From assembly GCF_945277285.1 (NCBI RefSeq), contig NZ_CALYPR010000002.1:69214-133213 (forward strand): 64,000 nucleotides of DNA. The letters run 5' to 3'. Made by a program: the position numbers and the translations under genes. Numbering within the stretch: position 1 is the first letter of the stretch; every line of letters starts with the position of its first letter. The notes below the pieces were generated by a model. It saw only the letters and a list, made by a program, of their open reading frames with translations. It was not told where the DNA came from and made no database searches. Shown here piece by piece: positions 22,438 through 41,217 of the stretch. This stretch comes from an uncultured Bartonella sp. (GTDB lineage: Bacteria > Pseudomonadota > Alphaproteobacteria > Rhizobiales > Rhizobiaceae).

Positions 22438-22481
22438 TGTCTCAAACGGGCGCGGGGCCATTTTCCCGCGCCTGATTTTTT
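22283..22481 (+). repeat. 199-bp direct repeat, copy 2
   Basis: See copy 1. Offset is 612 bp, and identity ends exactly after the T-run of the terminator. Confidence 0.9.
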
Positions 22482-23034
22482 AGCCTTCCACCGCCTCCGT
22501 TCCGCGCCTCGCACACGCTGTTTAACGCCTTGTGAGCGTGCCGCACCCCGCATTTTTTCTTGGCACTATTTTATCGGTGCTGCACCAGCCTTCACATAAC
22601 ACGCACCCGTTCCCCCTAAACCAGCATTGCTTCCGCTCGCTCCTTGCATACTTTCCAAGATCTAGCCGGTTATATATCCCGCCATTTTTCTTGGCTCCCG
22701 CCAGCACCGTGCATCCGTTTAATGCGGCGCATCCTTTTTTGAAGCCCCTTTTTATGACGCATCTCGTAACGGTTATGCGCCAGTCTCTTTTCGCCCCGCA
22801 CATCTCTTCGCCGGTGGCTTTTATCTTTTGGCTGCCTTGCTTCCAACCCAAGCCATGCATGTCATTTCTTTTGCCGCATCTATTCACGCAACCCCTCTCT
22901 TGCCATATGGTACTGGCGCATTTAACGGCTTTTTTGCCAGCAGTCCGGCAAAGGCGGTTTTTGCACAATCGCAGGTTTAATTATTGGTTTGTTCAAGGCG
23001 TGTCCGGCAAGCATTAATTGAGATATAATTTTTA

Positions 23035-24438
23035 TCAATCGGTTTTTTTAACGGTGCGCTCGCGTGTTTTGTTCAACGCATGGCCGGCATCAGGCGGCAA
23101 TCCCAAAAACACAAAAAAAGCAAGCGCCGAAATGGCGGCAACAATAAAAAAGCTGATATGAAAATCGCCAAGCTTCAAGATATTGTCGTGAAAGCTGGAT
23201 GAAATTTCCAGTACCGCACCGGCAATGGCTATGCCCAAAGCCATAGATGCTTGCTGGGCAACAGCGGCAATCGGGGTTGCCTGGCTCAATTCTTGCTTTT
23301 TGATATCGGCAAAGGCCAGCGCATTGACACCGGAAAAGAAGAGCGAGCGTAAAAAGCCGCCCACAAGCAGAACCGGCACCATGATCCAATAAGACGTTGT
23401 CGGGAAAAACAAGTCGTTCGACGCGGTAAACATGGCTGAAATAATGGCCCCTGTCATCAAGGTTTTGCGAAAACCGAAATGCGCATAAACTTCTCTCGCG
23501 CCAAACTTCATGCCAAGCGCCCCAAGTGCGGCCGCCAACACCATCATGCCTGACTGGACGGGTGAAAGCCCGAAAGATAGTTGCAGCATCATCGGCAACA
23601 AAAAGGGCACCGCACCGATACCGAGCCGGAAAATGCTGCCGCCGATAATGGAACGGGCAAAAACCGGATCAGCAAATAGACGCAGGTTTAACAATGGTTC
23701 ATCTTTGTTTTTTGCATGGCGAATATAAAAGCCGCCGGTTATAAGCCCGATTATGGTAATGGAAAGGCCGACACTTTGTGGCAAAGCCGGCAGACTGATG
23801 ATGGAAAGACCGAAAATAAAGCCGGAAAGGGCAATTGCCGAAAGCAAAAAACCTGTCCAGTCAAGCGGGCGCAGAACTTTCATTTCGTCTTTTGGCAAAT
23901 AGATGGTGGAAAGAATAAGCCCGATAAAACCGATTGGAATGTTGATTAAAAAAATCCAGTGCCAGCTAAAATAGGTGGTGATAAAACCGCCCAGAGGCGG
24001 GCCGATCAGCGGGCCGATGAGCGCAGGAACAGAAAACCACGCAAGGGCAATGACAAGTTCGTCCTTTGGTGTTGATTTGACCAGTAAAAGGCGGCCGACA
24101 GGCGTCATCATGGCGCCTCCCATGCCTTGTAAAAACCGCGACACCACAAACGAATGCAGCGAAAACGAGAGCGCGCAGCACACCGAACCGACAAGAAAAA
24201 CAACAATGGCCATTCTGAAAATGACGCGTGCGGTAAAGCGGTCGGCCATAAAGCCGCTTATCGGAATAAAAACCGAGAGCGCCACCAGATAGGATGTCAT
24301 CGCAAGTTTCAAAGCAATCGGACTGGTGTTCAAATCGGCGGCAATAGCGGGAAGGGAAGTGGTGATAACGTTGGAATCGACGTGTTCCATAAAAAGGGCA
24401 ACCGCCAGAACCATGGGGAGGATGCGCATCAATGACAA
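23035..24438 (-). CDS. MFS transporter, DHA2 (EmrB/QacA-like, 14-TMS) drug:H+ antiporter family
   Basis: 467 aa, about 14 hydrophobic segments. N-terminal LDxxV(I)xxxLPxI-like motif (MEHVDSNVITTSLPAIAADL) and GFMADRF motif A region. Start is either TTG 24438 or ATG 24429. Confidence 0.85.
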   Translation of the reverse strand: MSLMRILPMVLAVALFMEHVDSNVITTSLPAIAADLNTSPIALKLAMTSYLVALSVFIPISGFMADRFTARVIFRMAIVVFLVGSVCCALSFSLHSFVVSRFLQGMGGAMMTPVGRLLLVKSTPKDELVIALAWFSVPALIGPLIGPPLGGFITTYFSWHWIFLINIPIGFIGLILSTIYLPKDEMKVLRPLDWTGFLLSAIALSGFIFGLSIISLPALPQSVGLSITIIGLITGGFYIRHAKNKDEPLLNLRLFADPVFARSIIGGSIFRLGIGAVPFLLPMMLQLSFGLSPVQSGMMVLAAALGALGMKFGAREVYAHFGFRKTLMTGAIISAMFTASNDLFFPTTSYWIMVPVLLVGGFLRSLFFSGVNALAFADIKKQELSQATPIAAVAQQASMALGIAIAGAVLEISSSFHDNILKLGDFHISFFIVAAISALAFFVFLGLPPDAGHALNKTRERTVKKTD

Positions 24439-27365: not shown

Positions 27366-28226
27366 CCTTTGCCCGAAAAGGCAGTTGGCTCTGATCTATT
27401 GATATAGATTGTGTATGTCAATTTAAGTTCAATAAAGCCCGTTGCAAAACAAAACGTGCGGTGCTCCGGTTTCGCTTGCCAAGGGGTATCAAATCCTGCC
27501 AGATTTTTGAAAAGCGGCATGACTTACCTTTTCAGCACGATGGGCTTGCCCATGCCATGCTGGCTGAAAATAGCTGCCTCCGCCGTTTTGTCCTCAGCGG
27601 TACTCTATCGCCATTGTGGCTATAAAATTGGTTTTTTCCACGCGGTGGTAGAAGAAATTGGCGATTAGATTGATAAAAAATGCCGCGGCAATATCGGCCA
27701 TTACTGCGCAATGGCAGCGTTTTATGAGCGTTGCACACACAGCTATCTTGAATGTATGAAAGATCCGCAAATCGAGCATGTGTTGAAGCGTGATGGCGCG
27801 GCGGTGCTCGCCAATAGAACAAGCTGGCCAAGCCAAGTATCATAAAATGTTGGTTGAAGCCGTAAATGCCATGATAAAAAAACACATCATCCATATTTGC
27901 AATGCGGTGGCTCAGACAGGCCGGAACAATAGCGCGCTTTATTGTGCTTTAAGGTGCCGGTTTCGCCATTGCCCGTTTAAAAAAAGAGGCGGAAAGAACA
28001 TTTAAAAACAGTCGGAAGGTTTTGCCTTCTTATAGATGACCATCCGTACGAGAAACGCTGAAAATGCCATCACAACAGTGCCTGAGGCCACCGCGACAAA
28101 ATTTGCCTGAAAATTGGTTATGCTATAAAATTCCGGTAAAACCGCAAACGTTCAAAACCACAATCGAGCCATAGCATGAACCACGAATTGACACTCAACA
28201 CCTTGACCGCACCATTGCGGTTTTTC

Positions 28227-28351
28227 AACCCATAATTGAAGCAAATTTTAAAAAAATGACAAAAATCAGCCAAATTTTGTGTTTTTTTTCCATTTTTTTT
28301 GAAAAAAATACCCACTTAACGCTTAAAAAACAAAGAGTTAAGTGGGTATCG
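28227..28351. repeat. AT-rich CRISPR-flank segment, copy A (homologous to 30083-30203 and 40674-40744)
   Basis: Alignable by eye. A reads ..CCATAATTGAAGCAAATTTTAAAAAAATGACAAAAATCAGCC..TTTTTTTTGAAAAAAATACC.. and B reads ..CCAATTGAATTTAAAAAAAATGGAAAAAACCGGCC..TTTTTTTAAAAAAAATACC.. Confidence 0.7.
28301..28349 (-). terminator. intrinsic terminator at the left (minus-strand downstream) end of CRISPR array A
   Basis: 13-bp stem ATACCCACTTAAC / GTTAAGTGGGTAT (28308-28320 / 28337-28349) with a 16-nt loop. On the minus strand it is followed by TTTTTT(C). It ends 2 nt from the first repeat. Confidence 0.65.
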
Positions 28352-28652
28352 GTTGTAGCATATTAGAAAATGCGGTCAAGCCGCAACATGTCGCTAATCA
28401 AAACAACACTGTTGTGTGTTGTAGCATATTAGAAAATGCGGTCAAGCCACAACATGAACGCTGGTGTGGTGATAGCGACATGAGTTGTAGCATATTAGAA
28501 AATGCGGTCAAGCCGCAACAATGCACCGGTACTTTGCCATCTAGTTTGCTGTTGTAGCATATTAGAAAATGCGGTCAAGCCGCAACTATCGCGGTCGCCA
28601 AAAGCACCATACCGTTGGTGTAGCATATTAAAAAATGCAATGCATTTGATCA
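28352..28652 (-). CRISPR. CRISPR array A: 4 intact 36-bp repeats plus 1 degenerate repeat, 4 spacers (30/30/31/30 bp)
   Basis: Repeats at 28352, 28418 (GCCACAAC variant), 28484 and 28551 read GTTGTAGCATATTAGAAAATGCGGTCAAGCCGCAAC. The repeat at 28617-28652 keeps only the first 22 nt. All spacers are unique. The strand given is the inferred transcription direction (promoter and terminator logic), not proven. Confidence 0.9.
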
Positions 28653-28681
28653 GCTCATTTTTCCGGCAAAGTCTTTGGTTG

Positions 28682-28788
28682 TCGCAATCCTTATCCGAAA
28701 ACCGTGCATTTTTAGTTATCGCAATTCTTATCCGAAAACCGTACATTTTTTCAACTGGTTCTTATCCAAAAACCGCTTCGCACTTTTT
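28682..28788. repeat. three direct repeats (about 32 bp, 37-bp period) with core CTTATCC(G/A)AAAACCG
   Basis: TCGCAATCCTTATCCGAAAACCGTGCATTTTT (28682-28713), TCGCAATTCTTATCCGAAAACCGTACATTTTT (28719-28750) and a weaker third unit ..GGTTCTTATCCAAAAACCGCTTCGCACTTTTT (about 28756-28788). Confidence 0.7.
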
Positions 28789-28845
28789 GGGAAACAAGTT
28801 GCACTTTTCGGGAGCCGCTTGGAAACCTTTTTCAAAAAAAGCGCG

Positions 28846-29880
28846 TTAATTGCCCCAAATGCGTTCAAGAACGGCAATCCAGTTTTTGGAAGTGATTTTT
28901 TCAATCTCGTCATGGCTAAAACCGGCTTTTTCCATAGCGTCAACAAGCTTCGGCAATTGCGTGCAATCCGATAGGTCATTGGGAATGGTTGTGCCGTCAA
29001 AGTCAGAGCCAAGGCCAACATGTTCCACGCCGACAATGTCAACAATATAGCGCATATGGTTGATAATGGTTTTAAGTGGCGTGTCGCGGTTGCGCTCGCC
29101 ATCTGCACGCAAAAATTTCACCCCGAAATTGATGCCGACAAGCCCCTTGCTTTTGCCAATGGCGCGCAATTGCTCATCGGTCAAATTGCGGCTTTGATGG
29201 CTCAAGTGATAGGCGTTCGAATGGGAAGCAACAAGCGGCGCATCGCTCAATTTGGCAATGTCCCAGAAGCCTTTTTCATTCATATGGGAAAGGTCAACCA
29301 TAATGCCGAGTTTGTTGCATTCGCGCACCAGCTTTTTGCCGGCCTCCGTCAAGCCCGGGCCAATATCGCCGGTTGAAGGATATTTGAACGGCACACCAAA
29401 ACCGAAAATATTGGGCCGGCTCCACACCGGGCCAAGGCTGCGCAAACCATTTTCATAAAACATGGCCAGTTCTTCGAGGTTTTCGCCAATCGCTTCGGCC
29501 CCTTCAATGTGAAAAACAGCGGCAAATTGATGCGCTTTGATGGCCTCTTTAATGTCTTTGGCAGTTTTGCAAATTTTGAAGCGTTGCGGGGCAAGCTTTT
29601 CAATATCATGAAGAAGCTTGGCCATTTCCTTGCTCGGGCCTAGCGCATCCTTTTGTTTAAGCTCGGGATAAACCCCGTTTGCATCTGGCGTTAAATCGAC
29701 CGATGGCGGGTAAACCGCACAAAGCCCACCAACAAGCCCGCCTTTTTCAGCCTTTGGCAGGTCAAGTTCTGCACCGTCAAAACCATTGATAAAGGCGTTC
29801 GGGTCTAGATGTTTTTCATCGCGTATTTTGGAAAGAATATCATTGTGCCCGTCAAAACATTGAATGCGCGTTTGTGTCAT
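28846..29880 (-). CDS. membrane dipeptidase (peptidase family M19)
   Basis: 344 aa. The N-terminal FDGHNDIL metal motif and the overall pattern (..VDLSHMNEKGFWD.., ..ASHSNAY.., ..GLGSDFDG..) are typical of renal-dipeptidase-type enzymes. Confidence 0.85.
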   Translation of the reverse strand: MTQTRIQCFDGHNDILSKIRDEKHLDPNAFINGFDGAELDLPKAEKGGLVGGLCAVYPPSVDLTPDANGVYPELKQKDALGPSKEMAKLLHDIEKLAPQRFKICKTAKDIKEAIKAHQFAAVFHIEGAEAIGENLEELAMFYENGLRSLGPVWSRPNIFGFGVPFKYPSTGDIGPGLTEAGKKLVRECNKLGIMVDLSHMNEKGFWDIAKLSDAPLVASHSNAYHLSHQSRNLTDEQLRAIGKSKGLVGINFGVKFLRADGERNRDTPLKTIINHMRYIVDIVGVEHVGLGSDFDGTTIPNDLSDCTQLPKLVDAMEKAGFSHDEIEKITSKNWIAVLERIWGN

Positions 29881-30082: not shown

Positions 30083-30203
30083 AAAAACCAATTGAATTTA
30101 AAAAAAATGGAAAAAACCGGCCTGACTTTTTCACTTTTTGACCAATTTTTTTAAAAAAAATACCTGTTTATCTCTTATAAATCAAAGAGATAAACAGGTA
30201 TCA
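30083..30203. repeat. AT-rich CRISPR-flank segment, copy B
   Basis: Homologous to 28227-28351 (see there). Confidence 0.7.
30152..30201 (-). terminator. intrinsic terminator at the left end of CRISPR array B
   Basis: 16-bp stem ATACCTGTTTATCTCT / AGAGATAAACAGGTAT (30160-30175 / 30186-30201) with a 10-nt loop. On the minus strand it is followed by 7-8 T. It ends 2 nt from the first repeat. Confidence 0.7.
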
Positions 30204-30306
30204 GGTGTAGCATATTAGAAAATGCGGTCAAGCCGCAACATGTAAGACTGCCTTTCAGTGTCGATTTAGGGGTGTAGCATACTAGAAAATGCGGTCAAGC
30301 CGCAAC
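30204..30306 (-). CRISPR. CRISPR mini-array B: 2 repeats, 1 spacer (31 bp)
   Basis: GGTGTAGCATATTAGAAAATGCGGTCAAGCCGCAAC (30204-30239) and GGTGTAGCATACTAGAAAATGCGGTCAAGCCGCAAC (30271-30306). Same family as array A, with a G at position 2. Confidence 0.75.
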
Positions 30307-30499
30307 TGAAGATTGTAAAAAAATAACATTTCGGTTTGCCTTTTGGTCGAGGCAGTATTTGTAATTGCAATTTGTTGGCACACATTATAGCCAATGATCT
30401 GTTGAAATTGTATTGCCGTCTTGACGGGCAAATACTGTATCCTGTATTCTACCCGGACAAATGGCGACCTCCGGATATATTACAAGGAAAGCATAGATT

Positions 30500-31792
30500 T
30501 TGAAAAAAGAAAAAACAGAAGCGGATTTTGTTAGAACAAAACGTGAAAATATGGGACTGACGCAGAGTGCTTTCGCTGCGCTTCTCTCTATGGGGGCTTC
30601 AGGTGAGCGGACTATAAGGGGTTGGGAAAGCGGACAGCATACTCCGTCAGAAGAGTACATGAAACGCATGCAAAATCTGGTTGAGAATATACCGTTTAAA
30701 CCGGGAAAGAATTTATCGTCCTTTACATTTATAGATCTTTTTGCAGGTATAGGTGGAATCCGTCTTCCTTTTCAGGAACTGGGCGGAAAATGTGTATTTA
30801 CATCCGAATGGGATAAATTTGCCCAAAAAACCTATGCAGCGAATTTTGCTGAATTACCATATGGTGACATTACTGCCATAGCGGCATCTGGGATCCCATG
30901 CCACGATATACTTCTCGCGGGGTTTCCTTGCCAGTCTTTTTCGATGGCTGGTCTCAGAAAAGGTTTCCTTGATACCCGTGGAACCATGTTTTTCCAAATT
31001 CAGAAAATATTGGCTTATCATAGGCCCAAGGCTTTTCTTCTGGAGAATGTAAAACAGCTGAAAGGGCATGACAAAGGCCGGACGTTGAAAACCATTCTCG
31101 CAATATTGAGAGGGCACCATGACGTTTCTATACCGGATGATGTGCCTCTGTCTGACGAGTTACGGGAAAGTCTGAAAACAAAACTCGATTATTCGGTCGG
31201 TTATCGTGTTTTGAGTGCAACCGATTTCGGGGTGCCACAAAAACGGGAACGTATTTACATTGTCGGTTTTGATCGAAGTATCTGTAACGAGGACGATATA
31301 TCGCAGATGTTCGACCAATTGGAAAAGAACGATAAGAAATCGCTGGGGCAGATACTCGAAGACAATTCATCGGTTCCTGATAAATACACGATTTCCGATA
31401 GGCTTCTGGCAGGGCATGAACGACGGAAAAAGGAACAGAAAGAAAAAGGAAACGGCTTCGGGTACAGTCTTTTCAGTCATAATAGTCTTTATTGCAATAC
31501 CTTGAGTGCGCGCTATTATAAGGATGGATCAGAAATTCTCATCGACCAGAGTGACATCGGAAAGAATCCCAGAAAACTGACGCCTCGTGAATGTGCCCGC
31601 ATACAGGGGTTTCCCGAAAAATTCCGGCTGGATGCTGTTTCCGATGTTCAACTCTATAAACAGTTCGGCAATTCTGTTTCGGTTCCGGTTATACGCTCTA
31701 TAGCGAAAGAAATGGTCAAAATTCTGCTGGAAAGCGGAAAAGACGCCGGAAACCTTGATTTGAGGAAGGTTTACGGGGAAAAATTTGGCTGA
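30500..31792 (+). CDS. DNA (cytosine-5)-methyltransferase with N-terminal XRE-type HTH
   Basis: 430 aa. HTH ..RENMGLTQSAFAALLSMG..TIRGWESG... m5C MTase motifs I FIDLFAGIGGIRLPF, IV GFPCQSFS, VI LLENVKQL, VIII QKRERIYIVG, IX RKLTPRECARIQGFP and X GNSVSVPV. TTG start with AAGGAAAG 8 nt upstream. Confidence 0.9.
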   Translation: MKKEKTEADFVRTKRENMGLTQSAFAALLSMGASGERTIRGWESGQHTPSEEYMKRMQNLVENIPFKPGKNLSSFTFIDLFAGIGGIRLPFQELGGKCVFTSEWDKFAQKTYAANFAELPYGDITAIAASGIPCHDILLAGFPCQSFSMAGLRKGFLDTRGTMFFQIQKILAYHRPKAFLLENVKQLKGHDKGRTLKTILAILRGHHDVSIPDDVPLSDELRESLKTKLDYSVGYRVLSATDFGVPQKRERIYIVGFDRSICNEDDISQMFDQLEKNDKKSLGQILEDNSSVPDKYTISDRLLAGHERRKKEQKEKGNGFGYSLFSHNSLYCNTLSARYYKDGSEILIDQSDIGKNPRKLTPRECARIQGFPEKFRLDAVSDVQLYKQFGNSVSVPVIRSIAKEMVKILLESGKDAGNLDLRKVYGEKFG

Positions 31793-32240
31793 TATCGTAT
31801 CGCCTGAAAAACGCAGCCGCATGATGGCCGGTATACAAGGGAAAAATACCGGACCGGAAATGATAGTTCGCAGAACCCTGTTTTCGGCAGGTTACCGGTA
31901 TCGGTTGTACAGAAAAGATTTGCCCGGTACGCCGGATATAGTGCTTCCCAGGTATCGTTGTGTGATATTTGTGAATGGTTGCTTCTGGCATGGCCACGAA
32001 AATTGCAGGTTGTTCCGCCTGCCCAAAAGCAATACGGAATTCTGGCGCGCAAAGATTGAAGGCAATATTGCGAGAGACCGGAAAAAGTATGATGCGCTTG
32101 CTGAAAGAGGCTGGCGTATTATTATTGTCTGGGAATGTGCGGTAAAAGGGGCTCAACGGTTGTCGCACGCGGATTTCCAATATCAGCTATTTCATGCTAT
32201 TTCCGAAAAGAAAAAATGCCTTGTAATTAAAGGTGATTGA
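31785..32240 (+). CDS. vsr: very-short-patch repair endonuclease
   Basis: 151 aa with KRSRMMAGIQGKNTGPE, GTPDIVLPRYRCVIFVNGCFWHGH and FWRAKIEGNIARD, the canonical Vsr pattern. TTG start overlaps the MTase stop by 8 nt, as in dcm-vsr pairs. Confidence 0.9.
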   Translation: MADIVSPEKRSRMMAGIQGKNTGPEMIVRRTLFSAGYRYRLYRKDLPGTPDIVLPRYRCVIFVNGCFWHGHENCRLFRLPKSNTEFWRAKIEGNIARDRKKYDALAERGWRIIIVWECAVKGAQRLSHADFQYQLFHAISEKKKCLVIKGD

Positions 32241-32269
32241 CTTGAATATAGAGCGAAAAACTTGGACTC

Positions 32270-33847
32270 GTGATCATGGTACCCGATATTATAAATAGTT
32301 TCAAAGTTACCCAAGAAAAAATAAGTAAAATCGATAAAAAGCAGGTCGTAGTATTGAGCCCGCAACAATGGCAAAAAATTATTGCTGAATATCAGAAAAA
32401 ATTTCCTCAGGAGACTGTTTTTGAGGTGGGTGGGCATACGCTGGTGAACATAAATAGAAAAGGCCAGACAAAATATGTAAGTTGTCAGGAATTTCCGAAA
32501 TTATTTTTTCTTGTTGATCTATTTAAAGATCTTTTGTCTTTTGAAAGTGTTTTAAATAAACTTTCCGAGGCGATGGGGCTTAAAAATCCTCAGTCTGATG
32601 ATGAAAATAATGTATTCAAAGTTCTACCTTCAGAGACCGCAGAGAAAGAACTTGGGGATCGGTATAATTCGCTGATTGACGCCATTGACAAGTCGTTTCC
32701 TGATGCAGATGATCAGCTTAACATAAAAAATTTTTTGTTCAGCTCTAATGACGGTAAAAAGTTGAATCGCGGGGACTGGATGGAATCTGTTCTGTATAAA
32801 GCGGGAGGGCTGGTAGCGGCTTCATCAGCAGGTCGGGCCGGAATTCTGGAAGTGTTGGAAAAGACGGGAATAGATCCCAATTCACTCCATTTTGTATCAA
32901 ACCAGCAAGAACAGAACACGTTGATCATTGAAAATAATTCTACGCGAAAAACAGGTGGTATAAACCGCATCTATTATGGAGCTCCGGGAACCGGAAAATC
33001 CTACACAGTTGAGAAAAGCTCCCGTCCGGAAACAAGAACTACTACAGTATTCCACTCCGACTTCCAGAACAGCGATTTTGTCGGTGCTTTGAAACCGGTG
33101 ATGTCGGATGGCTCCGTTACCTACAAATTTTCCCCGGGCCCGTTTGCCATAGCGTTAAAAGAAGCATGGCTTGATCCTGAAAATATGCATTACCTCGTGA
33201 TCGAAGAACTGAATCGTGCGCCGGCCGCATCGGTGTTCGGAGAACTGTTCCAGCTGCTGGACCGGGACAACAACGGAAACAGCCAGTACGAGATAGACTT
33301 TCCGTCGGAAGAATTTGCTTCATGGTGGAGGGATGAGACAGGTGAGGAAGGTAAAATGAGGCTTCCCTCGAATCTTTCTATACTCGCGACGATGAACAGC
33401 GCTGACCAGGGAGTATATCCCCTTGATACGGCTTTTCGCCGTCGATGGGAACACGAATATATTCCTCTGGACTATAAAAAAGCTCCGGAAGGACAAATTG
33501 GTTTACGTCTGAAGGATGATGAAACTCCCCGCACGGTAGAATGGAGTGTTTTTCTGAAGAGACTCAATCAGTATTTTGTAGAAAAAATCAATGACTTACC
33601 GGAAGACCGGTTGATCGGACCCTATTTTTTATCAGGATATGATCTGGATAATGCTAAAAATTCGATTCCCGAAAAGCTGCTGATCTATATATGGGATGAT
33701 CTTTTACGCCATACCGGAAGACAGGAAATATTCGTCAGTTCTATCAAAACGTATGGTGATCTGGTCCGGAGAAACGAGAATGGAAAAGTGATTTTTTCAG
33801 AAGCTTTCCTTGCACGGTTTGATGATGGGAATGGCGTTGTTTCATGA
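32270..33847 (+). CDS. McrB-family AAA+ GTPase (LlaJI R1-like restriction subunit) with an unassigned 230-aa N-terminal domain
   Basis: Walker A GAPGTGKS, Walker B-like LVIEELNRA, McrB signature ATMNSADQ and arginine-finger region DTAFRRRW. The N-terminal domain has no motif I recognise. Start is GTG 32270 or ATG 32276. Confidence 0.8.
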   Translation: MIMVPDIINSFKVTQEKISKIDKKQVVVLSPQQWQKIIAEYQKKFPQETVFEVGGHTLVNINRKGQTKYVSCQEFPKLFFLVDLFKDLLSFESVLNKLSEAMGLKNPQSDDENNVFKVLPSETAEKELGDRYNSLIDAIDKSFPDADDQLNIKNFLFSSNDGKKLNRGDWMESVLYKAGGLVAASSAGRAGILEVLEKTGIDPNSLHFVSNQQEQNTLIIENNSTRKTGGINRIYYGAPGTGKSYTVEKSSRPETRTTTVFHSDFQNSDFVGALKPVMSDGSVTYKFSPGPFAIALKEAWLDPENMHYLVIEELNRAPAASVFGELFQLLDRDNNGNSQYEIDFPSEEFASWWRDETGEEGKMRLPSNLSILATMNSADQGVYPLDTAFRRRWEHEYIPLDYKKAPEGQIGLRLKDDETPRTVEWSVFLKRLNQYFVEKINDLPEDRLIGPYFLSGYDLDNAKNSIPEKLLIYIWDDLLRHTGRQEIFVSSIKTYGDLVRRNENGKVIFSEAFLARFDDGNGVVS

Positions 33848-35106
33848 CGACGTTATTTCTGAATGATGGATATCCGCTCTCGAAGCTGGAGGATGAACAT
33901 CCGGGGATATATCGAATACTCGAAAGCAATTATCCCGGATCTACTCTCAATCGTGACAGGTTGAGGTTTTGTGGAATTGTTTGTGAAGCCGGTTCGGATC
34001 CCGTTGTATTTCTTCCCTATGGCATTGTCATTTCCCGATTCGCTGCACCGGATTATAACGCCGGCCGGCTTCTTATGCGGTCGGTTGCCCGTTACGGAAA
34101 AGACAATCCGTCGCGGGCAGGCCATTCTCTTTCCGATGTGGATTATAAAGGGACGATGTTCATCGCTGTTGTAAATGAACTCGCCAATGATTTTATACGC
34201 AACGGTCTTTATTCCCGACGATTGAGAAAAAGGCAGGTGCAGACGGGTAAGCCCGACTGGCCACGGACTATAAAAAGGCAGACGCCTTTCTTTTCTGACA
34301 AAGGGGTGCCCATATATCCCGTCATTGAAACCAATGGATTTCAGGAAGCGAATATAAATATTCTTGCCAGCATCCAGGCCGATACAATAGTTGATATAGC
34401 ATCCAGACATGGCTGGTGGACTGGATTGGGCGCGTCGCAAACCAGGTTTCTTAAAAACATTCCGAAGCTGGTCAGAGACAGGAAACTTTACCCGGCAGCT
34501 ATCCGCGATTTTATGAACTTTCTTTATGATGACAATTCGCTAAGACTGGCAAGGCTATTGCGAACGTACTGGAGCAACTACTCAGCAACCGGATCCGGAA
34601 GTTTTGTGTGTGGTATCTCGGATTTCTCGACCCTCTGGGAGCAGATGCTCAAAAATCTGGTGGATGACCGTTCGGGCGAGTGGAACAGCAAACTTCCTTC
34701 GCCGGTCTATAAAATACATAATCTGGATGACAAAGCTCCCAAGGATAGGGGAAGAATGGATATAGTGATAGAGGCAACCGATAACATCATTGTCGCCGAC
34801 GCAAAATATTACAGGGCATTATCGGCTGATAGCGCTCCGGGCATTTCCGATCTCCTGAAACAATCCTATTATGCAAAGTCGGTATCTGATCTTGCTCCTC
34901 AAAAACCGATCCGCAGCTGTTTTGTTTTTCCATCGGAGAAAGGTAGTGGTCCGATAGAATACGGCTCGTTCGCCAGTACTTTGCATGACCAAAAGGTAGC
35001 ATGGCTGGAAGATACACATTGTTTATACGTCAATACGCGGGAAGTCATGCAAAGCTACGTTTCGCGATCGAAATTGGACTGGTTTCTACAATTATACAAA
35101 AAATAG
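33844..35106 (+). CDS. McrC-like / LlaJI R2-like PD-(D/E)xK nuclease subunit
   Basis: 420 aa. ATGA overlap with the McrB-like gene. C-terminal nuclease-like motif GRMDIVIE..(10 aa)..VADAKYY (D..D/ExK). The pairing with a McrB-type GTPase is the McrBC/LlaJI architecture. Confidence 0.65.
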   Translation: MTTLFLNDGYPLSKLEDEHPGIYRILESNYPGSTLNRDRLRFCGIVCEAGSDPVVFLPYGIVISRFAAPDYNAGRLLMRSVARYGKDNPSRAGHSLSDVDYKGTMFIAVVNELANDFIRNGLYSRRLRKRQVQTGKPDWPRTIKRQTPFFSDKGVPIYPVIETNGFQEANINILASIQADTIVDIASRHGWWTGLGASQTRFLKNIPKLVRDRKLYPAAIRDFMNFLYDDNSLRLARLLRTYWSNYSATGSGSFVCGISDFSTLWEQMLKNLVDDRSGEWNSKLPSPVYKIHNLDDKAPKDRGRMDIVIEATDNIIVADAKYYRALSADSAPGISDLLKQSYYAKSVSDLAPQKPIRSCFVFPSEKGSGPIEYGSFASTLHDQKVAWLEDTHCLYVNTREVMQSYVSRSKLDWFLQLYKK

Positions 35107-35363
35107 AAACGAATAATTATGGCATCGGGCATGTTTACTTGTTTTGACTTTAACATCCGGATACGTATTCCTGAATGATCAAGAGCTCGGTTTGTAGGAA
35201 GAAGCCTTCCGGTTTTAAAGCAACCCGGGAGCGTTGGCAGATCCTCGATCGTTATAGAGAAAGGTTATTATATCTTTGATACAGAAAGGGATTTCGGAAT
35301 CTGATCGTAAAAGTCCATTCAACGATCGAAAACAAGGTCTAAATTGCAGCAAAGCATTAGAAA

Positions 35364-35401
35364 GCAACGGGCAAAAAGTTTGCCTGTTGCGATAGTTTTT
35401 T
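35364..35401. terminator. bidirectional hairpin terminator between the restriction module and the oxidoreductase operon
   Basis: GCAACGGGCAAA-aag-TTTGCCTGTTGC (one mismatch), followed by GATAGTTTTTT on the + strand and TTTCT on the - strand. Confidence 0.55.
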
Positions 35402-35410
35402 AAAGCTAAG

Positions 35411-36148
35411 TCAGCGATAGGCTGCTGGGCGGTCGCCATCGGTATTGGGCTGTGAAATGCCGAGGTTTTCATTTTTGTGGCTATCGGGATTTTTAACAAT
35501 ATCGGCAATAAACCGGCCAAGGCTGGCGCGTGATGTTTCGGTGCCTTTATAGGTTTCGCCTTTTTGTGTGAGCTCCACTGTTTCTATCGGTTTGTTGGTG
35601 AGCCAGACCGGCCGCAAAATGGTATAGGTCAGGTCCGATTGTTCGATTTCCTCGGCACTGCGGCGGTTGATTGGCCTTGTTTGCCCGACAATCTCTCTGT
35701 CCCAAGTGTTGAAAGGTTCGGGCAATTCATCGTATATGCCGCCGGCGCTGATCGAGATTAAGCGTTTGACACCATTATCTTGCATGGCTTTGATAATATT
35801 GGCGGTTTTTTTATCAAGATCCATCCCGCCCATGGTGTTGATGACAATGTCTTGCCCCTTCATGGCCCGTTCAACATCGGCAAGATTTGTTGCGTCACCC
35901 TCAACAACATCTACGCGTTCACTTTTCATATGTTCAAGCCGTGAAGCATGGCGCAAAAACAAGGCAAGATGAACATCGTTCTGTTGAAGTAAGCGCGGGA
36001 TAATTTCTTGCGCCGTGCGCCCGTTAGCGCCCATAATGATAACGTTTTTCATTGTTTTGGTCTCCGTCTGTGCGTTTGAAGGTTGTAGAAGTGCCAAGGC
36101 CGTGGCAAGCCCCGCGAGCCATATAAAAAGTGGTTTTAGAATTTTCAT
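35411..36148 (-). CDS. NAD(P)H-binding (NmrA/atypical SDR-like) protein with possible Sec signal peptide
   Basis: Rossmann motif VIIMGANGRTAQ. 32 residues precede it: MKILKPLFIWLAGLATALALLQPSNA|QTE (signal-peptide-like). An alternative cytoplasmic start is MKNVIIMG (ATG 36052). Confidence 0.75.
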   Translation of the reverse strand: MKILKPLFIWLAGLATALALLQPSNAQTETKTMKNVIIMGANGRTAQEIIPRLLQQNDVHLALFLRHASRLEHMKSERVDVVEGDATNLADVERAMKGQDIVINTMGGMDLDKKTANIIKAMQDNGVKRLISISAGGIYDELPEPFNTWDREIVGQTRPINRRSAEEIEQSDLTYTILRPVWLTNKPIETVELTQKGETYKGTETSRASLGRFIADIVKNPDSHKNENLGISQPNTDGDRPAAYR

Positions 36149-36239
36149 AAGATAAAATCTTCCTGTTTTTTAGGAGCTATTTTCATAGCCGGGTTGCAAC
36201 TTCTCATGGTTTCACAACCCGCTTTGTTGCTCTGGTCTT

Positions 36240-37502
36240 TCAAAGTGTTTCATATTGCTTGCCAATTTTTTTGCCGGAAATTGCCCACACACCGGCAAGC
36301 ACAAGCGCCAGCCCCATAATCATTGGCGGGTGGGCAACATTGCGGGTAAGTGTATCAACCCAGCCCCAAAACGCATCCGAACCGCGATAGACAAAGGTGT
36401 CGAGCGCATTTTTGGCACTAAAACGCGTGTCTTCATCAACGGCAGCAAAAAGCATTTCGCGGGCCGGTCGTGCCAGCGCATATTCGCCAACACGGCGAGC
36501 CACCATGGCAATTGCCAATATCGGAAAGCTGTAAAACAGTCCGAGAAGCCCGAACACCACCACCATCATAACCGGCAGGCTGACCAGCAGAAATGTAACG
36601 CCGAGCTTGCGGGCAATGCGGCCGGTAAAAAATATCTGTATGAGAATGGAAGCCGTCTGGACAATCATATCCATAATGGAAAAAAACTGTGTCTGTTCGG
36701 CAGGACTTGCAAAGCGCGCGTGCACAAGGCGGGCTTGCGCATAATAGAGAAATGTTGTCGAGGCTGATGTGAGAACGACATAAAGGGCAATCTGGCGCAA
36801 ATAAGGGGAATGAAGAACCAGCTTCAGCCCAATCCATATGCCGGAAAATTTTGGTTTTTCTTCGCCATTTTTTTCTTTTTGCCGGCCATGGTGTTGGCTC
36901 CAGCGCACCAGAAAAAACCAGCAGAAAAGCGTTGACAAAAATAGCAAAGTCGAAATCAGTAACAACCCGCCATAGCCAACTTTTCCAACCAGAAATCCAC
37001 TTAAAAGCGGGCCGGTAATGCCGCCAAGGCTTGCCCCAGCCGATAATGGCCCGAACAGGCGTTGCGCCTGATCCTTGTTAAAAACTTCAGCTAAAAAGCT
37101 CCAGCAAAGTGAAATGACAAACAGGTTATAAACCGACACCCAGACAAAAAATGCCCGCCCCACCCATATTGGGTTTCTGTTTATGAAAAGGCTAGAGGTA
37201 AAACACAGCATGACCACGGCACAAAAAATATAGCAATAGGCAAAGAGCTTTGTTTTTTTCAATTTCTGGCTCACATAGCCAAACAGCGGTACCACAAGCA
37301 GTGTGGCAACAAAGGTAGCGGTAAAAAGCCATGAAAGATGGTTGACACCGCCGGCTATGCCGAAGGTCTCACGCACCGGCCGCAACATAAAATAGCTGCA
37401 AAAAACCAGAAAAAGCATGATAAAACCACCGATAAAAGCCGCTGTTTCATCGGCTTTCAGGTTTAATGCTTTGTCAAAGCTTTTTAAAATTTTACCAGTC
37501 AT
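36240..37502 (-). CDS. MFS-type transporter (12 TM), subfamily uncertain
   Basis: 420 aa polytopic protein. The N-terminal FLVFCSYFMLRPVRETFGI resembles the F..Y..LR..K/R-D/E signature of TLC/ADP-ATP-carrier-like MFS proteins; this is a weak by-eye resemblance only. Confidence 0.7.
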   Translation of the reverse strand: MTGKILKSFDKALNLKADETAAFIGGFIMLFLVFCSYFMLRPVRETFGIAGGVNHLSWLFTATFVATLLVVPLFGYVSQKLKKTKLFAYCYIFCAVVMLCFTSSLFINRNPIWVGRAFFVWVSVYNLFVISLCWSFLAEVFNKDQAQRLFGPLSAGASLGGITGPLLSGFLVGKVGYGGLLLISTLLFLSTLFCWFFLVRWSQHHGRQKEKNGEEKPKFSGIWIGLKLVLHSPYLRQIALYVVLTSASTTFLYYAQARLVHARFASPAEQTQFFSIMDMIVQTASILIQIFFTGRIARKLGVTFLLVSLPVMMVVVFGLLGLFYSFPILAIAMVARRVGEYALARPAREMLFAAVDEDTRFSAKNALDTFVYRGSDAFWGWVDTLTRNVAHPPMIMGLALVLAGVWAISGKKIGKQYETL

Positions 37503-37512
37503 TTGAGGCCAG

Positions 37513-38301
37513 CTATTGAAGCTTCAAGAGTTTACGCAATTTGTCAGCCGGAAGATGGGCGCGAAAGCCCGCTGCATCGGGTGAAAAAGACGCCGATGAA
37601 GCAAGATTTCCGGTAACGACAGGCTCGCACCCCGTTTCGCTGACAAGTTTTTCCACCACCTGCAAGGCGGCCTCGTCATCACTGGCCATCGGCATGCCGA
37701 CAGCTTCACGTTGGTGGTTGAAACAAGCTTCCACCACAGTGGCATCAACGGCAGAAAATGCCCGCACAAGGCGCGTATCCGGCAAATATTTTTTAACCGT
37801 TTCGGCAACGCCATTTTTGCGTGCTTCACCAGTTAGCGGGTCAGAACCACCGGATAGAGGCGGGTTTGTCGCATCAATAACAATTTTGCCTTTCAGTTCT
37901 TGCGCACAATCCTTGCCAATTTGCGGCAAAGCCTGAAATGGCACAGAGACAAGCACAACATCGCCAAAAGCGGCGGCTTCTTTCGGGGTGCCAATCAAAG
38001 CATTTTTTCCAAGCGGGGCGACAAGTTTTTTTAACGCTTCCGGATGGCGGGACGAAAACATTACATTGTGTCCGGCTTTGGCAAGACAACTGCCCACCGT
38101 GCCACCAAGCCAGCCGGCGCCAATCACACCGATTTTTAAAGCTTTTGCATCGGTTGTGCTTTTTTCATCGGCAGAACTTTTTGTAGCTCCCGCGGTTTCA
38201 TTATGCTGCGGCGTTTGGGAAAAGGCCGGATAGGCACCGAAAGCTGTGTCGGCGGAAAATAGAATTGCAGATTTTAACAAGCTACGACGGGAAATTGTCA
38301 T
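37513..38301 (-). CDS. NADP oxidoreductase (F420-reductase/ProC-N-like Rossmann protein) with twin-arginine signal
   Basis: MTISRRSLLKSAILFSADTAFGAYPAFS (S-R-R-x-L-L-K Tat motif), a Ser/Thr/Lys-rich linker, then IGVIGAGWLGGTVG Rossmann fold. Confidence 0.75.
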   Translation of the reverse strand: MTISRRSLLKSAILFSADTAFGAYPAFSQTPQHNETAGATKSSADEKSTTDAKALKIGVIGAGWLGGTVGSCLAKAGHNVMFSSRHPEALKKLVAPLGKNALIGTPKEAAAFGDVVLVSVPFQALPQIGKDCAQELKGKIVIDATNPPLSGGSDPLTGEARKNGVAETVKKYLPDTRLVRAFSAVDATVVEACFNHQREAVGMPMASDDEAALQVVEKLVSETGCEPVVTGNLASSASFSPDAAGFRAHLPADKLRKLLKLQ

Positions 38302-38316
38302 AAAAACCTCGCTGTT

Positions 38317-39336
38317 TTAAATGGGAAAAGCTTTGTCAAGCTTTTCAAGATCATCCTCGTCAAGGTGAAGGCCAAGGGCTGCCGCATTTTCACGCATATG
38401 GTTAGCCTGCCCTGTTTGCGGGATGGAAATGGTAAAATTGTTGCGCATTGTCCAGAAAATCGCCACAGCCGCCGCACTGACGGCATGTTTTTTGGCAATC
38501 TCTTGCAAAGTTGCGTTTTGTAAAAGGCCGCCTTTTCCAGAACCAAGCGGCGAATAGGCCATGATCGGCATAGCGTTTTTAATTGACCATGGCATAAGGT
38601 CGCGTTCAATCTGGCGGTCAAGAAGTGAATATTCCACCTGATTGGTGGCACATTTTTCGCCATTTGGAATGGCAAACAGATCTTCCATATCGGCAACAGA
38701 AAAATTCGACACGCCCCAATCGGTAAACGCCCCTTCGGCTTTGAGTTCCTCGAACGTGTCAACAACGGTTTTGAGGTTGGAAATACCACCACGCCAATGC
38801 AGAAGATAAAGATCCATTTTTGCAATGCCAAGCCGTGCCAGACTGTTTTGACAGGCGGTGCGGATGTCATTGGCATTGCCCGCATGCGCCGGCATGATTT
38901 TTGAAACAATATAGGTTTTGTTGCGGCGGCCGGCGATAATGCGGCCCACCATTTCTTCAGCAAGGCCGGAGCCATAAAGCTCGGCTGTATCAATCAGCTT
39001 CATGCCCAGATCAAGACCGGTTTGAAGTGCTTCTTCTTCCTGTTCTATTGGCCGCACACCTTGCGCGAGTTTCCATGTGCCCATGCCCAGTGCGGGAATG
39101 AGATTTCCGGTTTTCAACTTTATTAAGGGGTTTTGTGCCGGCTTGTTAGGCGCTATTTTATCTGGCGCTGTTTTATCTGCTGTTGTCTTGTTTGGCACTG
39201 CGTTGTTTGTTGCTGCTTTGTCTGGTGCGGCACTATTTTGTGGTGTGGTGGTTTGGCTTGCCAACGCATTTTGGCAAACAAGCAAACCGGCACCACAGCC
39301 AACAGCAAATTGGCGACGTGTGATATTCATTCCCAT
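38317..39336 (-). CDS. aldo/keto reductase with twin-arginine signal and P-[DN]-K repeat linker
   Basis: Start at ATG 39336 (GAGGAAAG upstream). MGMNITRRQFAVGCGAGLLVCQNALA Tat-type signal, then linker APDKAATNNAVPNKTTADKTAPDKIAPNKP. AKR core motifs LIDTAELYG, DLYLLHW and SPLG. Confidence 0.85.
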   Translation of the reverse strand: MGMNITRRQFAVGCGAGLLVCQNALASQTTTPQNSAAPDKAATNNAVPNKTTADKTAPDKIAPNKPAQNPLIKLKTGNLIPALGMGTWKLAQGVRPIEQEEEALQTGLDLGMKLIDTAELYGSGLAEEMVGRIIAGRRNKTYIVSKIMPAHAGNANDIRTACQNSLARLGIAKMDLYLLHWRGGISNLKTVVDTFEELKAEGAFTDWGVSNFSVADMEDLFAIPNGEKCATNQVEYSLLDRQIERDLMPWSIKNAMPIMAYSPLGSGKGGLLQNATLQEIAKKHAVSAAAVAIFWTMRNNFTISIPQTGQANHMRENAAALGLHLDEDDLEKLDKAFPI

Positions 39337-39617
39337 GTCTTTCCTCGATCTGTTAATAAAAATATAGTTTAATGATAACAGATGGGGTAGGGCAGTTCCA
39401 TTCATCATTGAAATGAATAAAAATCACCAATAGCGGAAACAAAGCCAAGAAAACCGGTGTTCAGAAAAAATATCAGTTGTGGCAAACTGGCTGATCACTG
39501 CTGCAATGATAAGTCGCTATTAAAAACAGCACATGACGGCTAATAAAATACAATTTTGTATGAAAAAGCGGCAGAAGACAGCGCATTCCGGCCGCTTTTT
39601 TCGCTGAATTGATGTGG

Positions 39618-40499
39618 TTACTTGCATATTGCTTTAACTTCGGCCCAAAAGGCAATATTCTCGCCGACAGATTGTAGCCCCGGAAACAGAAACTGTTTGT
39701 TCACGCCGTAATTAAAAAGTTTTCTTAAGATTTCTGTTTTTATTTTAGCAGGAATGATGATTTTTTTAAGCGTTAAGTCGCGATTGAGTGTGGAAGTGAT
39801 ATCGCCCCGTTGATCAATCGATTTATATTTTCCCTCTTCGGTTGCTTCCCATTTTTGAAGTGTAAAAACCGATTTTTGCATAAAAATTCGTTGGTCGACA
39901 ATTGGTGGCAATATGCCGCCAATTTTAACGCTATCTAAATCCTTAAAAATTTGATTCCTTTTAGTATCATTAATATCAAAATAGAGTTTTGACCGTAGCG
40001 TTCGCATCTGATTTATACAAAAGACAGCGGCATCTGTTGCGGTCTGTTTGTCGGTTTTTGTTGAACCCTTCCGGTTTTTCCGGTCTTCCACCCAGGCATT
40101 TTGTACCGCAAAAAACAGCGCCACTAGTGGGTCGCGGCTCCAGTCGAGAAGCCGTGTCGGCACACCATAATGCTGGGCAATAATCCTGTCAGCAATAAAA
40201 CCGCGTTTGGCATTTTGGAGATAAGGCATGCCTTCTGCAAAAAAGCGTTCCACCATTTCTTCTTCACAACGCGTATATCGGCTGTCATTATCTTCCTCAG
40301 GTTCTTTTTTGATAAACGGAGGATTGCGATAAAGCTTCGGGGTGAGCAACCATTTTGCACTGGATTGTCCCCTGAAAAAATGAGCTTTCCCTTCGGTTAT
40401 AGTTTCAATAAGATTGAAATAGGCGTTTAATGTTGGTTTTTTTAAAGTAACTCTTTTTATTTTCATTTTAAAAAATCCGGTCAATATATTCAGATTCAT
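39618..40499 (-). CDS. FRG-domain protein
   Basis: 293 aa (or 282 aa from MKIKRV..). Contains the FRG signature ..KAHFFRGQSSAKWLLTPKLYR.. and ..IAQHYGVPTRLLDWSRDPLVALFFA... The C-terminal 130 aa are unassigned. Confidence 0.75.
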   Translation of the reverse strand: MNLNILTGFFKMKIKRVTLKKPTLNAYFNLIETITEGKAHFFRGQSSAKWLLTPKLYRNPPFIKKEPEEDNDSRYTRCEEEMVERFFAEGMPYLQNAKRGFIADRIIAQHYGVPTRLLDWSRDPLVALFFAVQNAWVEDRKNRKGSTKTDKQTATDAAVFCINQMRTLRSKLYFDINDTKRNQIFKDLDSVKIGGILPPIVDQRIFMQKSVFTLQKWEATEEGKYKSIDQRGDITSTLNRDLTLKKIIIPAKIKTEILRKLFNYGVNKQFLFPGLQSVGENIAFWAEVKAICK

Positions 40500-40673
40500 A
40501 AAATGACATGTTTTTCTTGTCTATCGAAAAGGAAATAGGCTTAAACTCTTTGATCGGCAGCATGAACGAAAAGTTTATAAGCAAAAAAGAGCTGCTATTT
40601 GCGGGCGGGGAGAAAAAAGCAGGCGGAAGGGTGCAAAACCCTGCCCAAACCGGCAAGCGACATTGTTCAAAAT

Positions 40674-40744
40674 ATAGCCGGATCTTATTTTGACTATTTA
40701 AAAAAAAGCTCACTTAACGCTTTTTAAAAAACTGGGCTAGCGGG
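40674..40744. repeat. AT-rich CRISPR-flank segment, copy C (decayed)
   Basis: ..TTTAAAAAAAAGCTCACTTAACGCTTTTTAAAAAACTGGGCT.. aligns with the A flank ..GAAAAAAATACCCACTTAACGCTTAAAAAACAAAGAGTTAAGTGGGTAT.., but the 3' arm of the hairpin is deleted. Confidence 0.55.
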
Positions 40745-40975
40745 CAGCAGGGCCATAAGGAAATGCGGACAAGCCACAACCTTGGATGTTCTTCTTCGTC
40801 GGGCGAAGATGGTGGCGCATAAAAATTGCGGTCAAGCCGCAACTAAATGTTTGGGTAAAGCAATGTCGCCAGTGGTGTAGCAGATTAGAAAATGCGGTCA
40901 AGCCGCAACATGGCGTTCGTTATGGAGCAAAGCTTCATAGTTGCAGCATATTAGAAAATGCGCTCACACCGCAAC
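40745..40975 (-). CRISPR. CRISPR array C: 4 repeats (3 mutated), 3 spacers of 30 bp
   Basis: C1 40745-40780 (3' half ..GGAAATGCGGACAAGCCACAAC conserved). C2 40811-40843 (GGTGGCGCATAAAAATTGCGGTCAAGCCGCAAC, 3-bp shorter). C3 40874-40909 (GGTGTAGCAGATTAGAAAATGCGGTCAAGCCGCAAC). C4 40940-40975 (GTTGCAGCATATTAGAAAATGCGCTCACACCGCAAC). Spacing is exactly 30 bp. Confidence 0.8.
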
Positions 40976-41217
40976 ACATCCATGGTTTAGGTTGGCCGTT
41001 GATTTTACCTTTAAATTTTGCCATATCACCAATAGACACCGAGCCAAACGGAGCGCCACCCTTGCGGTGTTGGGGAATTTCCGACCCAACGGTGTCATTG
41101 GAATTTTTCCACGGTTTTGGGCTTTATCAAAATTTTCCTGCATTGTTCGCCGTTGTTGCGCGTTAAAAAATGCGCGCTAACGGCACATTTTATCGGCGTG
41201 TTTTAGATGTTGAAAAT

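Follow-up and report, generated by a model that had tools for sequence, protein, structure and literature searches.

Why should nine genes, spanning 10.4 kb, lie between two short CRISPR arrays in the chromosome of a bee-gut-type Bartonella? This block extends from array B to array C within a stretch of 64,000 nucleotides, which was analyzed as a whole and is referred to as the window, and a third array, A, is situated to the left of array B. An earlier, sequence-only reading of this DNA proposed that the block occupies a former type II-C cas locus, at which homologous repeats and flanks allow cassettes to be swapped in and out. The observations described here suggest another answer, to which we assign a probability of about 60%: arrays A, B and C represent satellite units of the II-C system of this clade, distant from its cas genes, and are located in a hypervariable stretch beside which a composite accessory block has accumulated. 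The site is most likely a real and variable hotspot of recombination and insertion. The evidence favors exchange driven by recombination; that the repeats serve as crossover sites or anchors is no more than plausible.

All three arrays are built from one common 36-nt repeat, GTTGTAGCATATTAGAAAATGCGGTCAAGCCGCAAC, and contain unique spacers of 30-31 nt. As had been described earlier, a dipeptidase gene is enclosed by arrays A and B, and the block by arrays B and C (Table 1). A homologous A/T-rich flank stands in front of every array on the plus strand, and the flanks of arrays A and B are 77% identical over 149 nt. No cas gene is found in the 64 kb, where tblastn with Cas9, Cas1 and Cas2 gives no match below E = 0.3, and the largest open reading frame (ORF) of the window codes for a resistance-nodulation-division (RND) pump. 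The window also contains no trans-activating CRISPR RNA (tracrRNA). In a scan that covered one representative genome per prokaryotic species, the repeat was found only in bee-gut Bartonella, namely in B. apis, B. choladocola, B. apihabitans and metagenome-assembled genomes (MAGs). In the JGI metagenomes the window-type repeat has 0 matches, and a generic form of the repeat matches 2 unrelated contigs with one or two isolated degenerate repeats.

The complete system is present in the sister species. In locus L012, a Cas9 of 1103 residues (with RuvC_III, HNH and Cas9_a domains), Cas1 and Cas2 are followed directly by a leader and an array, and the same arrangement is found in L008 and L005. The sister cas loci consist of cas9, cas1 and cas2 with neither csn2 nor cas4, which is the II-C composition. 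Numerous short arrays, all with a leader copy of their own, come after the one cas operon. Between neighboring mini-arrays lie either about 440 bp, which comprise a conserved trailer and a further leader, or individual accessory genes, which code for TM-WYL, SocA/Panacea, Acyl_transf_3, a helix-turn-helix (HTH) protein and a protein with a ResT/TelK catalytic domain. All satellite leaders of the B. apis group (the 150 nt upstream of the mini-arrays, for example in L001, L004, L008, L011 and L013) include a degenerate version of the final ~80 nt of cas2. The identity of this fossil is 69-72% over 80 nt, with a local score of 35 compared with a shuffle maximum of 15. The sister units are therefore descendants of a duplicated cas2-leader-array junction. 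Leader A of the window is homologous to the leaders of the sister-species arrays, with an identity of 62-75%.

The 187 spacers collected from the window and the related loci measure 29-32 nt, and the only one shared between loci is the array B spacer, which is common to the window and L021. Since no other spacer is common among the 187, the units are not mere copies of each other and have been filled independently.

By combining the repeat with the tracrRNA of the sister species, it is possible to assign the strand from which the arrays are read. The tracrRNA candidate of L012 (5405-5492) is positioned upstream of cas9 and antisense to it, and combines an anti-repeat with a tail of the AAGC type and a strong terminator. 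With the minus-sense repeat it forms a duplex of -46.1 kcal/mol, which reaches the 5' end of the repeat, whereas the other repeat orientation gives a duplex of -37.4 kcal/mol and no terminator. The stronger minus-sense duplex of the anti-repeat, together with the terminator, thus indicates that the CRISPR RNA (crRNA) is read opposite to cas9, which corresponds to the minus strand of the window. A correction is needed in this sense: the arrays most likely code for their RNA on the minus strand. A plus-strand crRNA, with a 98-nt insert of the B. apis array as the tracrRNA, was also considered and was rejected in favor of the better duplex and the terminator upstream of cas9.

The 98-nt insert is a conserved, hairpin-rich element of the sister species, which takes the place of a spacer in the cas-proximal array near tRNA-Ser and has a degenerate repeat after it (L008 4788-4921, two copies in L011, and L002). 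It folds with z = -3.96 and might be a repeat-derived regulatory RNA.

Hairpins of 17-18 bp are located directly to the left of arrays A and B, and the hairpin of leader B was called by a terminator scan. Among 13 leader variants of the clade, six of the 17 base pairs of the stem show compensatory changes, and 92.8% of the cells are paired, compared with 29-51% when the partner columns are slid. The stem of leader B differs in sequence from that of leader A and the pairing is kept. The hairpin probably functions as an intrinsic terminator that ends array transcription. Each unit would then be a self-contained minus-strand transcription unit, in which the repeats are transcribed towards the leader and transcription is stopped at the hairpin. 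The hairpin would at the same time shield the next gene on the minus strand, that is, the gene for a transporter of the major facilitator superfamily (MFS) in the case of array A and the dipeptidase gene in the case of array B. Array C is probably dead, because the right arm of its leader hairpin has been lost and its repeats have decayed.

The minus-sense repeat, GTTGCGGCTTGACCGCATTTTCTAATATGCTACAAC, holds the motif TTGACC-N16-TGnTACAAC, a candidate repeat-embedded promoter. It resembles the promoters in the repeats of Neisseria meningitidis, from which the crRNAs of that species start (PMC12477760). The repeat end TGnTACAA is the same in both, whereas the hexamer found here is TACAAC, without the final T. 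As the -10 box deviates in this position, the activity of the promoter is uncertain.

A conserved, structured trailer element of about 75 nt follows most of the sister mini-arrays (L001 6777-6866, L004 1266-1355, L012 176-265 and others), and a copy is also present in the window. Its outer stem covaries between two types, GACACCG/CGGTGTC and GCGCCG/CGGCGT. The element has no match in Rfam and is missing in L021.

The order of genes in the sister species bears directly on whether the block marks an old cas site. It is cas9-cas1-cas2, leader, array, tRNA-Ser, rplU, rpmA, GNAT, mini-arrays, MdtD, MATE, MFS and dipeptidase. In four sister genomes the cas operon is situated to the left of tRNA-Ser, a position equivalent to less than 19.9 kb in the window, and the cas site of the clade thus appears to be more than 10 kb to the left of the block. 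In L022, which belongs to a sister lineage, the MFS gene is followed by 647 bp, the dipeptidase, 433 bp, allE, a LysR gene and an ABC transporter; there is no repeat in either spacer of this locus and no block. In the lineage of the window, leader-plus-array units fill these two neighboring spacers. From the sister gene order and the empty spacers of L022 it follows that the site has probably never been a cas locus, and that the dipeptidase and its neighbors are, by synteny, core genes in an old order, to which the arrays and the block seem to have been added in the window lineage. Core genes are likewise flanked by arrays in the sister species, where these are tRNA-Ser, rplU and rpmA, and where MdtD, MATE and MFS are further core genes situated among the short arrays. 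The comparison from the MFS gene to allE thus bears out the suggestion that the block is accessory, as the related genome without arrays is also without the block. The dipeptidase gene is indeed bracketed by arrays A and B, as had been stated, but it is a core gene in conserved synteny and not cargo.

The idea that cas9-cas1-cas2 once stood between arrays B and C, and was replaced there by cassettes through recombination of repeats and flanks, can now be weighed. It would account for the arrays with homologous leaders that flank the block in direct orientation, for the exact coming and going of a restriction module at the terminal repeat of array B, and for a faint motif, ATTGCAGCAAAGCATTAGAAAGCAAC, at the end of that insertion, which was read by eye and was not tested against chance. 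It is contradicted by the four sister genomes with cas to the left of tRNA-Ser and by the dipeptidase-allE interval, which is an empty spacer of 433 bp in the sister lineage. The window contains no remnant of Cas9, Cas1 or Cas2 detectable by tblastn and no tracrRNA, the redox operon within the block has a native composition, and a MAG with an identical repeat (L007) has cas1 and cas2 elsewhere. In that MAG the C-terminal part of cas1, cas2, a leader and one repeat lie beside rnhB, in a third location; the best matches of its Cas1 in the protein collections are fragments with 71-87% identity, none of them close. We consider a former cas locus very unlikely.

The positions of the sister arrays correspond in the window to ORF-less scar DNA. 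One such stretch, at the position of the sister mini-arrays (21825-23035), is 1.2 kb long, ORF-less and C/T-rich, with a GC skew of -0.23. The 3' end of the GNAT gene is duplicated over 240 nt with 95% identity (21630-21869 and 22242-22481). ARAGORN calls a tRNA-Ala at 22934-23012, without confirmation by Rfam.

The variation among strains was followed in metagenome contigs that were retrieved by exact-protein look-ups and are 98-99% identical to the window; look-ups with the allE and FRG proteins gave no match. The restriction module (the insertion in Table 1) occurs in a constant context in 14 further contigs, and is absent in L016 and in L023, a lineage with 89% identity. In these two loci the terminator of the NAD_binding_10 gene comes ~140 nt after the terminal repeat of array B, which is degenerate there. 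The module was therefore inserted later, exactly behind the last repeat of array B, and it is still polymorphic in the population. The repeat-like motif that ends the insertion is located at 35340-35366. No plasmid is a close source of the module; 13-19% of it, in the methylase gene, is covered at 62-68% identity. Array B of L016 has two different spacers and a truncated third repeat. In L015 and L021 the last repeat of array A is immediately followed by an extra gene, coding for 175 residues. L021 and the window have the left half of array C in common, and the right half is different. In L023 the redox-FRG unit is also linked to an array end, on the side of array B. The proposal that cassettes are swapped at the arrays is therefore partly upheld, in that strains with and without the restriction module differ exactly from the terminal repeat of array B onwards, and two other differences start at leader-distal array ends.

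In L021 and L024, which represent a strain of the window species, the McrB-like R1 is called as two pieces (174 and 355 residues) and vsr is not called, which reflects either decay of the module or errors in an assembly of 6.5x coverage.

Downstream of the dipeptidase gene (28674-28800 in the window; 1450-1640 in L015) there is a 37-nt tandem repeat together with TTATCCGAAAACCGT / CACTTTTCGGGA motifs. Copies of the motifs are more numerous in the strains with the 175-residue gene, and they may represent its regulatory region.

Outside positions 27516-28589, L021 and the window are 98-99% identical; within them the identity is 69-79%. This divergent stretch comprises the ORF-less flank, leader A and array A, all spacers of which differ. 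A divergent MFS allele was considered as the cause of the drop and was rejected, since the profile shows that only this stretch diverges; from the MFS gene to ~27500 the identity to L021 is 95-100%, mostly 99%. Because the flanks are 98-99% identical and the stretch itself is 69-79% identical, replacement anchored in core genes is likely. A 120-residue ORF in the hypervariable DNA to the left of array A (Table 1) has no match in Pfam or NCBIfam.

These data could also be read in terms of an ordinary insertion hotspot, at which the arrays are bystanders. Restriction modules and other defense genes would insert, either by means of their own or illegitimately, into any dispensable intergenic DNA, strains would exchange them via the flanking core genes only, and the association with array ends would come about because the arrays are the largest neutral DNA here and break assemblies. 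The divergent allele between an MFS and a dipeptidase gene that are both 98-99% identical is in line with this, as is the restriction module, which has no target duplication or repeat pair on either side; moreover, contigs end at arrays in most assemblies. All three polymorphisms begin, however, within or directly after a terminal repeat and not elsewhere in the spacers, and in the sister species single accessory genes (WYL, SocA/Panacea, acyltransferase, ResT/TelK-like and HTH) lie between repeats or mini-arrays. In addition, a fragment of the B. choladocola array-MdtD junction is duplicated behind another array. Such an indifferent role of the arrays is possible, but in our judgment it is rather unlikely.

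The duplicated fragment is ~100 nt of the 3' end of MdtD, which is found behind the cas-proximal array of B. choladocola (L002 compared with L001). It appears to be the footprint of an array-associated rearrangement.

The base composition divides the block into parts. The 33 surrounding genes have a G+C content (GC) of 0.500 +/- 0.017. The four restriction genes have values of 0.426-0.466 (z from -2.0 to -4.3) and atypical codon use, and the FRG gene has a value of 0.396 (z = -6.1). The redox operon genes have values of 0.477-0.512, which is within +/-1.3 standard deviations of the surroundings. The restriction module and the FRG gene are thus foreign in composition, and the redox operon looks native. 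Given this division, the block is composite and not a single foreign piece. The restriction module had been judged by eye to be richer in A+T than its surroundings, and the computed values agree; the notion of a uniformly foreign block is not compatible with the native composition of the redox operon.

Arrays B and C together with the block might, on the other hand, be the remnant of an integrated mobile element (a plasmid, an integrative and conjugative element or a prophage) that carried mini-arrays of its own. The foreign composition of the restriction module and the FRG gene would then be expected, and the redox-FRG unit of L023 is situated beside tRNA-Arg, a classic island site. Neither the block nor the 64 kb contains an integrase, relaxase, replication or phage gene, however; no similar plasmid was found and the spacers gave no phage match, the leaders share homology with the one beside the chromosomal cas genes of the clade, and the redox operon is native in composition. 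The earlier statement that integrase and transposase genes are absent holds across the entire 64-kb window, which contains no recombinase either, and there is no flanking integrase or transposase, direct repeat or tRNA target around the block. An origin from a mobile element is most improbable.

If arrays A, B and C are satellite units, a course for the turnover of cargo at this site may be proposed. The redox operon and the FRG gene lie between units B and C, and the restriction module was inserted later. The first arrival of each cassette (the restriction module, the FRG gene) would be an illegitimate or self-promoted insertion at the leader-distal end of an array, where the DNA is non-essential and the insertion is tolerated. 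In further turnover, DNA arriving from co-resident strains would be exchanged by homologous recombination of the RecA type, with one crossover in an array/leader unit or a flanking core gene and the other in the next conserved gene. The satellite units would work only in trans, with cas9 and tracrRNA encoded elsewhere, if the strain has them.

A bolder version is that the segment comprising the 3' end of cas2, the leader and a repeat forms a spreading module, which seeds new II-C arrays around core genes, and that the leader-distal ends act as landing pads or homology anchors for defense cassettes, without a recombinase in cis. We hold this version to be unlikely.

Several observations weigh against the interpretation of the arrays as functional satellite units beside a hotspot. 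No protospacer has been found, and arrays A and B are therefore at most putatively active: 11 concatenated spacers gave only a 20-nt chance match among the GenBank phages, four spacers had no match in IMG/VR, collections in which phages of bee-gut Bartonella are barely represented, and there is no self-target within all the related DNA gathered. The promoter scan made no call at the candidate repeat promoter, in whose -10 box the conserved final T is missing. The cas2 fossil is at chance level in the leaders of the window (scores of 14 and 9, compared with shuffles of 8.4 +/- 1.5 and maxima of 14-15). The cas loci with an identical repeat are uninformative or decayed, L007 being cut at the edge of the locus and L031 having one degenerate repeat copy, a frameshifted cas1 and no detectable cas9. 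The redox-FRG unit of L023 abuts tRNA-Arg (window position 51026) and not array C and the purine-catabolism genes; this junction could be due to a deletion or to a different position of the island. The strains were compared on contigs from short-read metagenomes, and such contigs are prone to break, or to turn chimeric, at CRISPR repeats; the coverage of L021 is only 6.5x. Only three or four structural polymorphisms have been seen, so the enrichment at array ends is suggestive and not statistical.

The cas1 gene appears to be frameshifted or fragmented in L002 (B. choladocola), L005 (B. apihabitans) and L031 (a Logan contig). To judge from these genes, decay of the II-C system may be under way in several of the clade's lineages.

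With the II-C systems of N. meningitidis and Campylobacter jejuni the arrays have in common 36-nt repeats starting with GTTG, 30-nt spacers and a crRNA strand opposite to the cas operon, and the sister species also share a cas operon of only three genes, cas9-cas1-cas2, and the position of the tracrRNA beside cas9. They differ in the strong hairpin terminator in the leader of every array, in the multiplication of the array into many leader-bearing units, and in a window without cas or tracrRNA.

Isolated arrays far from cas genes include the orphan arrays of Escherichia coli. In N. meningitidis, experiments have shown that another II-C array, flanked by a leader and separate from the first on the chromosome, is used in trans and acquires spacers (PMC12477760), and in the type I-F system of Pseudomonas aeruginosa isolated arrays (CRISPR3) have leaders copied from the cas-adjacent array (PMC13142298). 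In view of these two precedents, satellite arrays are a known kind of object. The units described here are similarly far from cas, have a leader homologous to the cas-adjacent one and, as is possible for isolated arrays, may be served in trans. For isolated arrays an origin by recombination or by horizontal transfer has been put forward. In contrast to the P. aeruginosa arrays, the system here is II-C. Unlike the situation of other orphan arrays, there are three units within 13 kb in the window, while the sister loci have at least six each, interleaved with core genes; there are no mobile-element genes nearby, and defense cargo is placed directly behind the arrays.

The defense cargo can be compared with known systems as well. 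LlaJI of Lactococcus lactis comprises an McrB-like AAA+ GTPase, R1, and a LlaJI-family nuclease, R2, with two 5-methylcytosine (m5C) methylases upstream. The module of the window has the same order of R1 and R2 downstream of an m5C methylation gene, but it contains one HTH-fused Dcm-type methylase and Vsr, and no second methylase. As in defense islands, restriction-modification, CRISPR and a candidate gene of the PDC-S15 family are co-located and strain-variable; unlike such islands, the block includes a native-looking exported redox operon and lacks the hallmarks of integrases and transposases. The sister loci are reminiscent of integrons, as short repeated non-coding units alternate with single accessory genes that look promoter-less. 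There is no IntI, attI or attC, however, and core genes lie between the units, so the likeness is one of layout only. The sole recombinase-like ORF is the protein with the ResT/TelK catalytic domain (249 residues), which is located between repeats in two sister loci, L002 (B. choladocola) and L009 (a MAG), and not in the window.

CRISPR arrays are commonly regarded as passive stores of memory beside their cas genes. The parts of the present locus (orphan arrays, a LlaJI-like restriction system, Vsr, an FRG gene and a redox operon) are ordinary, and their arrangement is moderately unusual in the number of units, their interleaving with core genes and the cargo directly behind them. In this clade of gut symbionts, the II-C array is split into many leader-bearing units, dispersed among core genes, with strain-variable defense genes directly behind them. 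If the units do spread and anchor the exchange of cassettes, they would provide a recombinase-free route for building and reshuffling defense islands, and this would also explain the persistence of arrays without cas. The locus further illustrates how arrays fragment metagenome assemblies and hide accessory genes.

The genes of the block were called by profile searches with Pfam, PADLOC and NCBIfam, and the gene content given for the interval between arrays B and C in the sequence-only reading stands. PADLOC recovers the defense content (the restriction genes and PDC-S15), and the FRG gene is indeed the last gene of the block beside array C. By its family match to PDC-S15, this gene is a candidate defense gene. 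The features of the locus are collected in Table 1.

Table 1. Features of the array-bearing region, in window coordinates.
Feature	Position	Strand	Evidence and remarks
Hypervariable ORF-less stretch left of array A	27425-28243		0.8 kb, lineage-specific; sister homology ends at 27424
Leader A	28292-28351	-	17-bp hairpin, then T-run on minus strand; fold -22.7 kcal/mol, z = -6.45
Array A	28352-28650	- (probable crRNA strand)	Four intact 36-nt repeats (28352, 28418, 28484, 28551), truncated fifth (28618); four spacers
M19 membrane dipeptidase	28846-29880	-	Pfam PF01244, E 2.2e-96; arrays A and B on either side
Leader B	30095-30203	-	Hairpin 30159-30202 and minus-strand T-run; fold -25.1 kcal/mol, z = -7.12
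Array B	30204-30306	- (probable crRNA strand)	Repeats 30204, 30271; one spacer
Strain-variable insertion with restriction module	30307-35365 (5.06 kb)	+	GC 0.444
HTH-fused Dcm-type C5 DNA methylase (m5C)	30500-31792	+	Pfam PF00145, E 3.8e-94; PADLOC
Vsr	31785-32240	+	Pfam, PADLOC, NCBIfam
McrB-like AAA+ (AAA_5), R1	32270-33847	+	PF07728, E 3.4e-12; McrB NF008457, E 4.9e-11, under curated cut-off
RE_LlaJI nuclease, R2	33844-35106	+	PF09563, E 1.6e-31; PADLOC REase_II, E 1.3e-47
Redox/transporter operon, four genes	35411-39408	-	Three oxidoreductases and MFS
NAD_binding_10, NAD(P)-binding protein	35411-36148	-	Pfam; Sec-type signal
MFS-type transporter	36240-37502	-	Pfam, NCBIfam
NADP oxidoreductase, F420_oxidored family	37513-38301	-	Pfam; twin-arginine motif
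Aldo/keto reductase	38317-39408; likely start 39330	-	Pfam; twin-arginine motif
FRG-domain gene	39618-40499	-	Pfam FRG, E 1e-20; PADLOC PDC-S15 (PDLC04938), E 1.6e-48
Decayed leader C	40697-40744	-	Right arm of hairpin lost
Array C	40745-40975	- (probable crRNA strand)	Repeats 40745, 40808, 40874, 40940; all degenerate, 2-14 mismatches
Trailer element, ~75 nt	41029-41119	+	Structured, T-run; follows most sister-species mini-arrays

The N-terminus of the NAD_binding_10 protein, MKILKPLFIWLAGLATALALLQPSNAQ, reads as a Sec-type signal, and the two reductases of the twin-arginine translocation (Tat) type begin with the motifs MTISRRSLLK and MNITRRQFAV, all read by eye from the translations. As the three oxidoreductases thus appear to carry Sec or Tat signals, 'exported redox operon' seems a fair description. 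The MFS-type transporter of this operon has a weak similarity to nucleoside tri-/diphosphate (NTP/NDP) exchange proteins of the TLC type (TIGR00769, E 9e-7, below the cut-off). The pairing of NAD(P)-dependent enzymes that carry periplasmic export signals with a possible nucleotide transporter beside them is an odd one.

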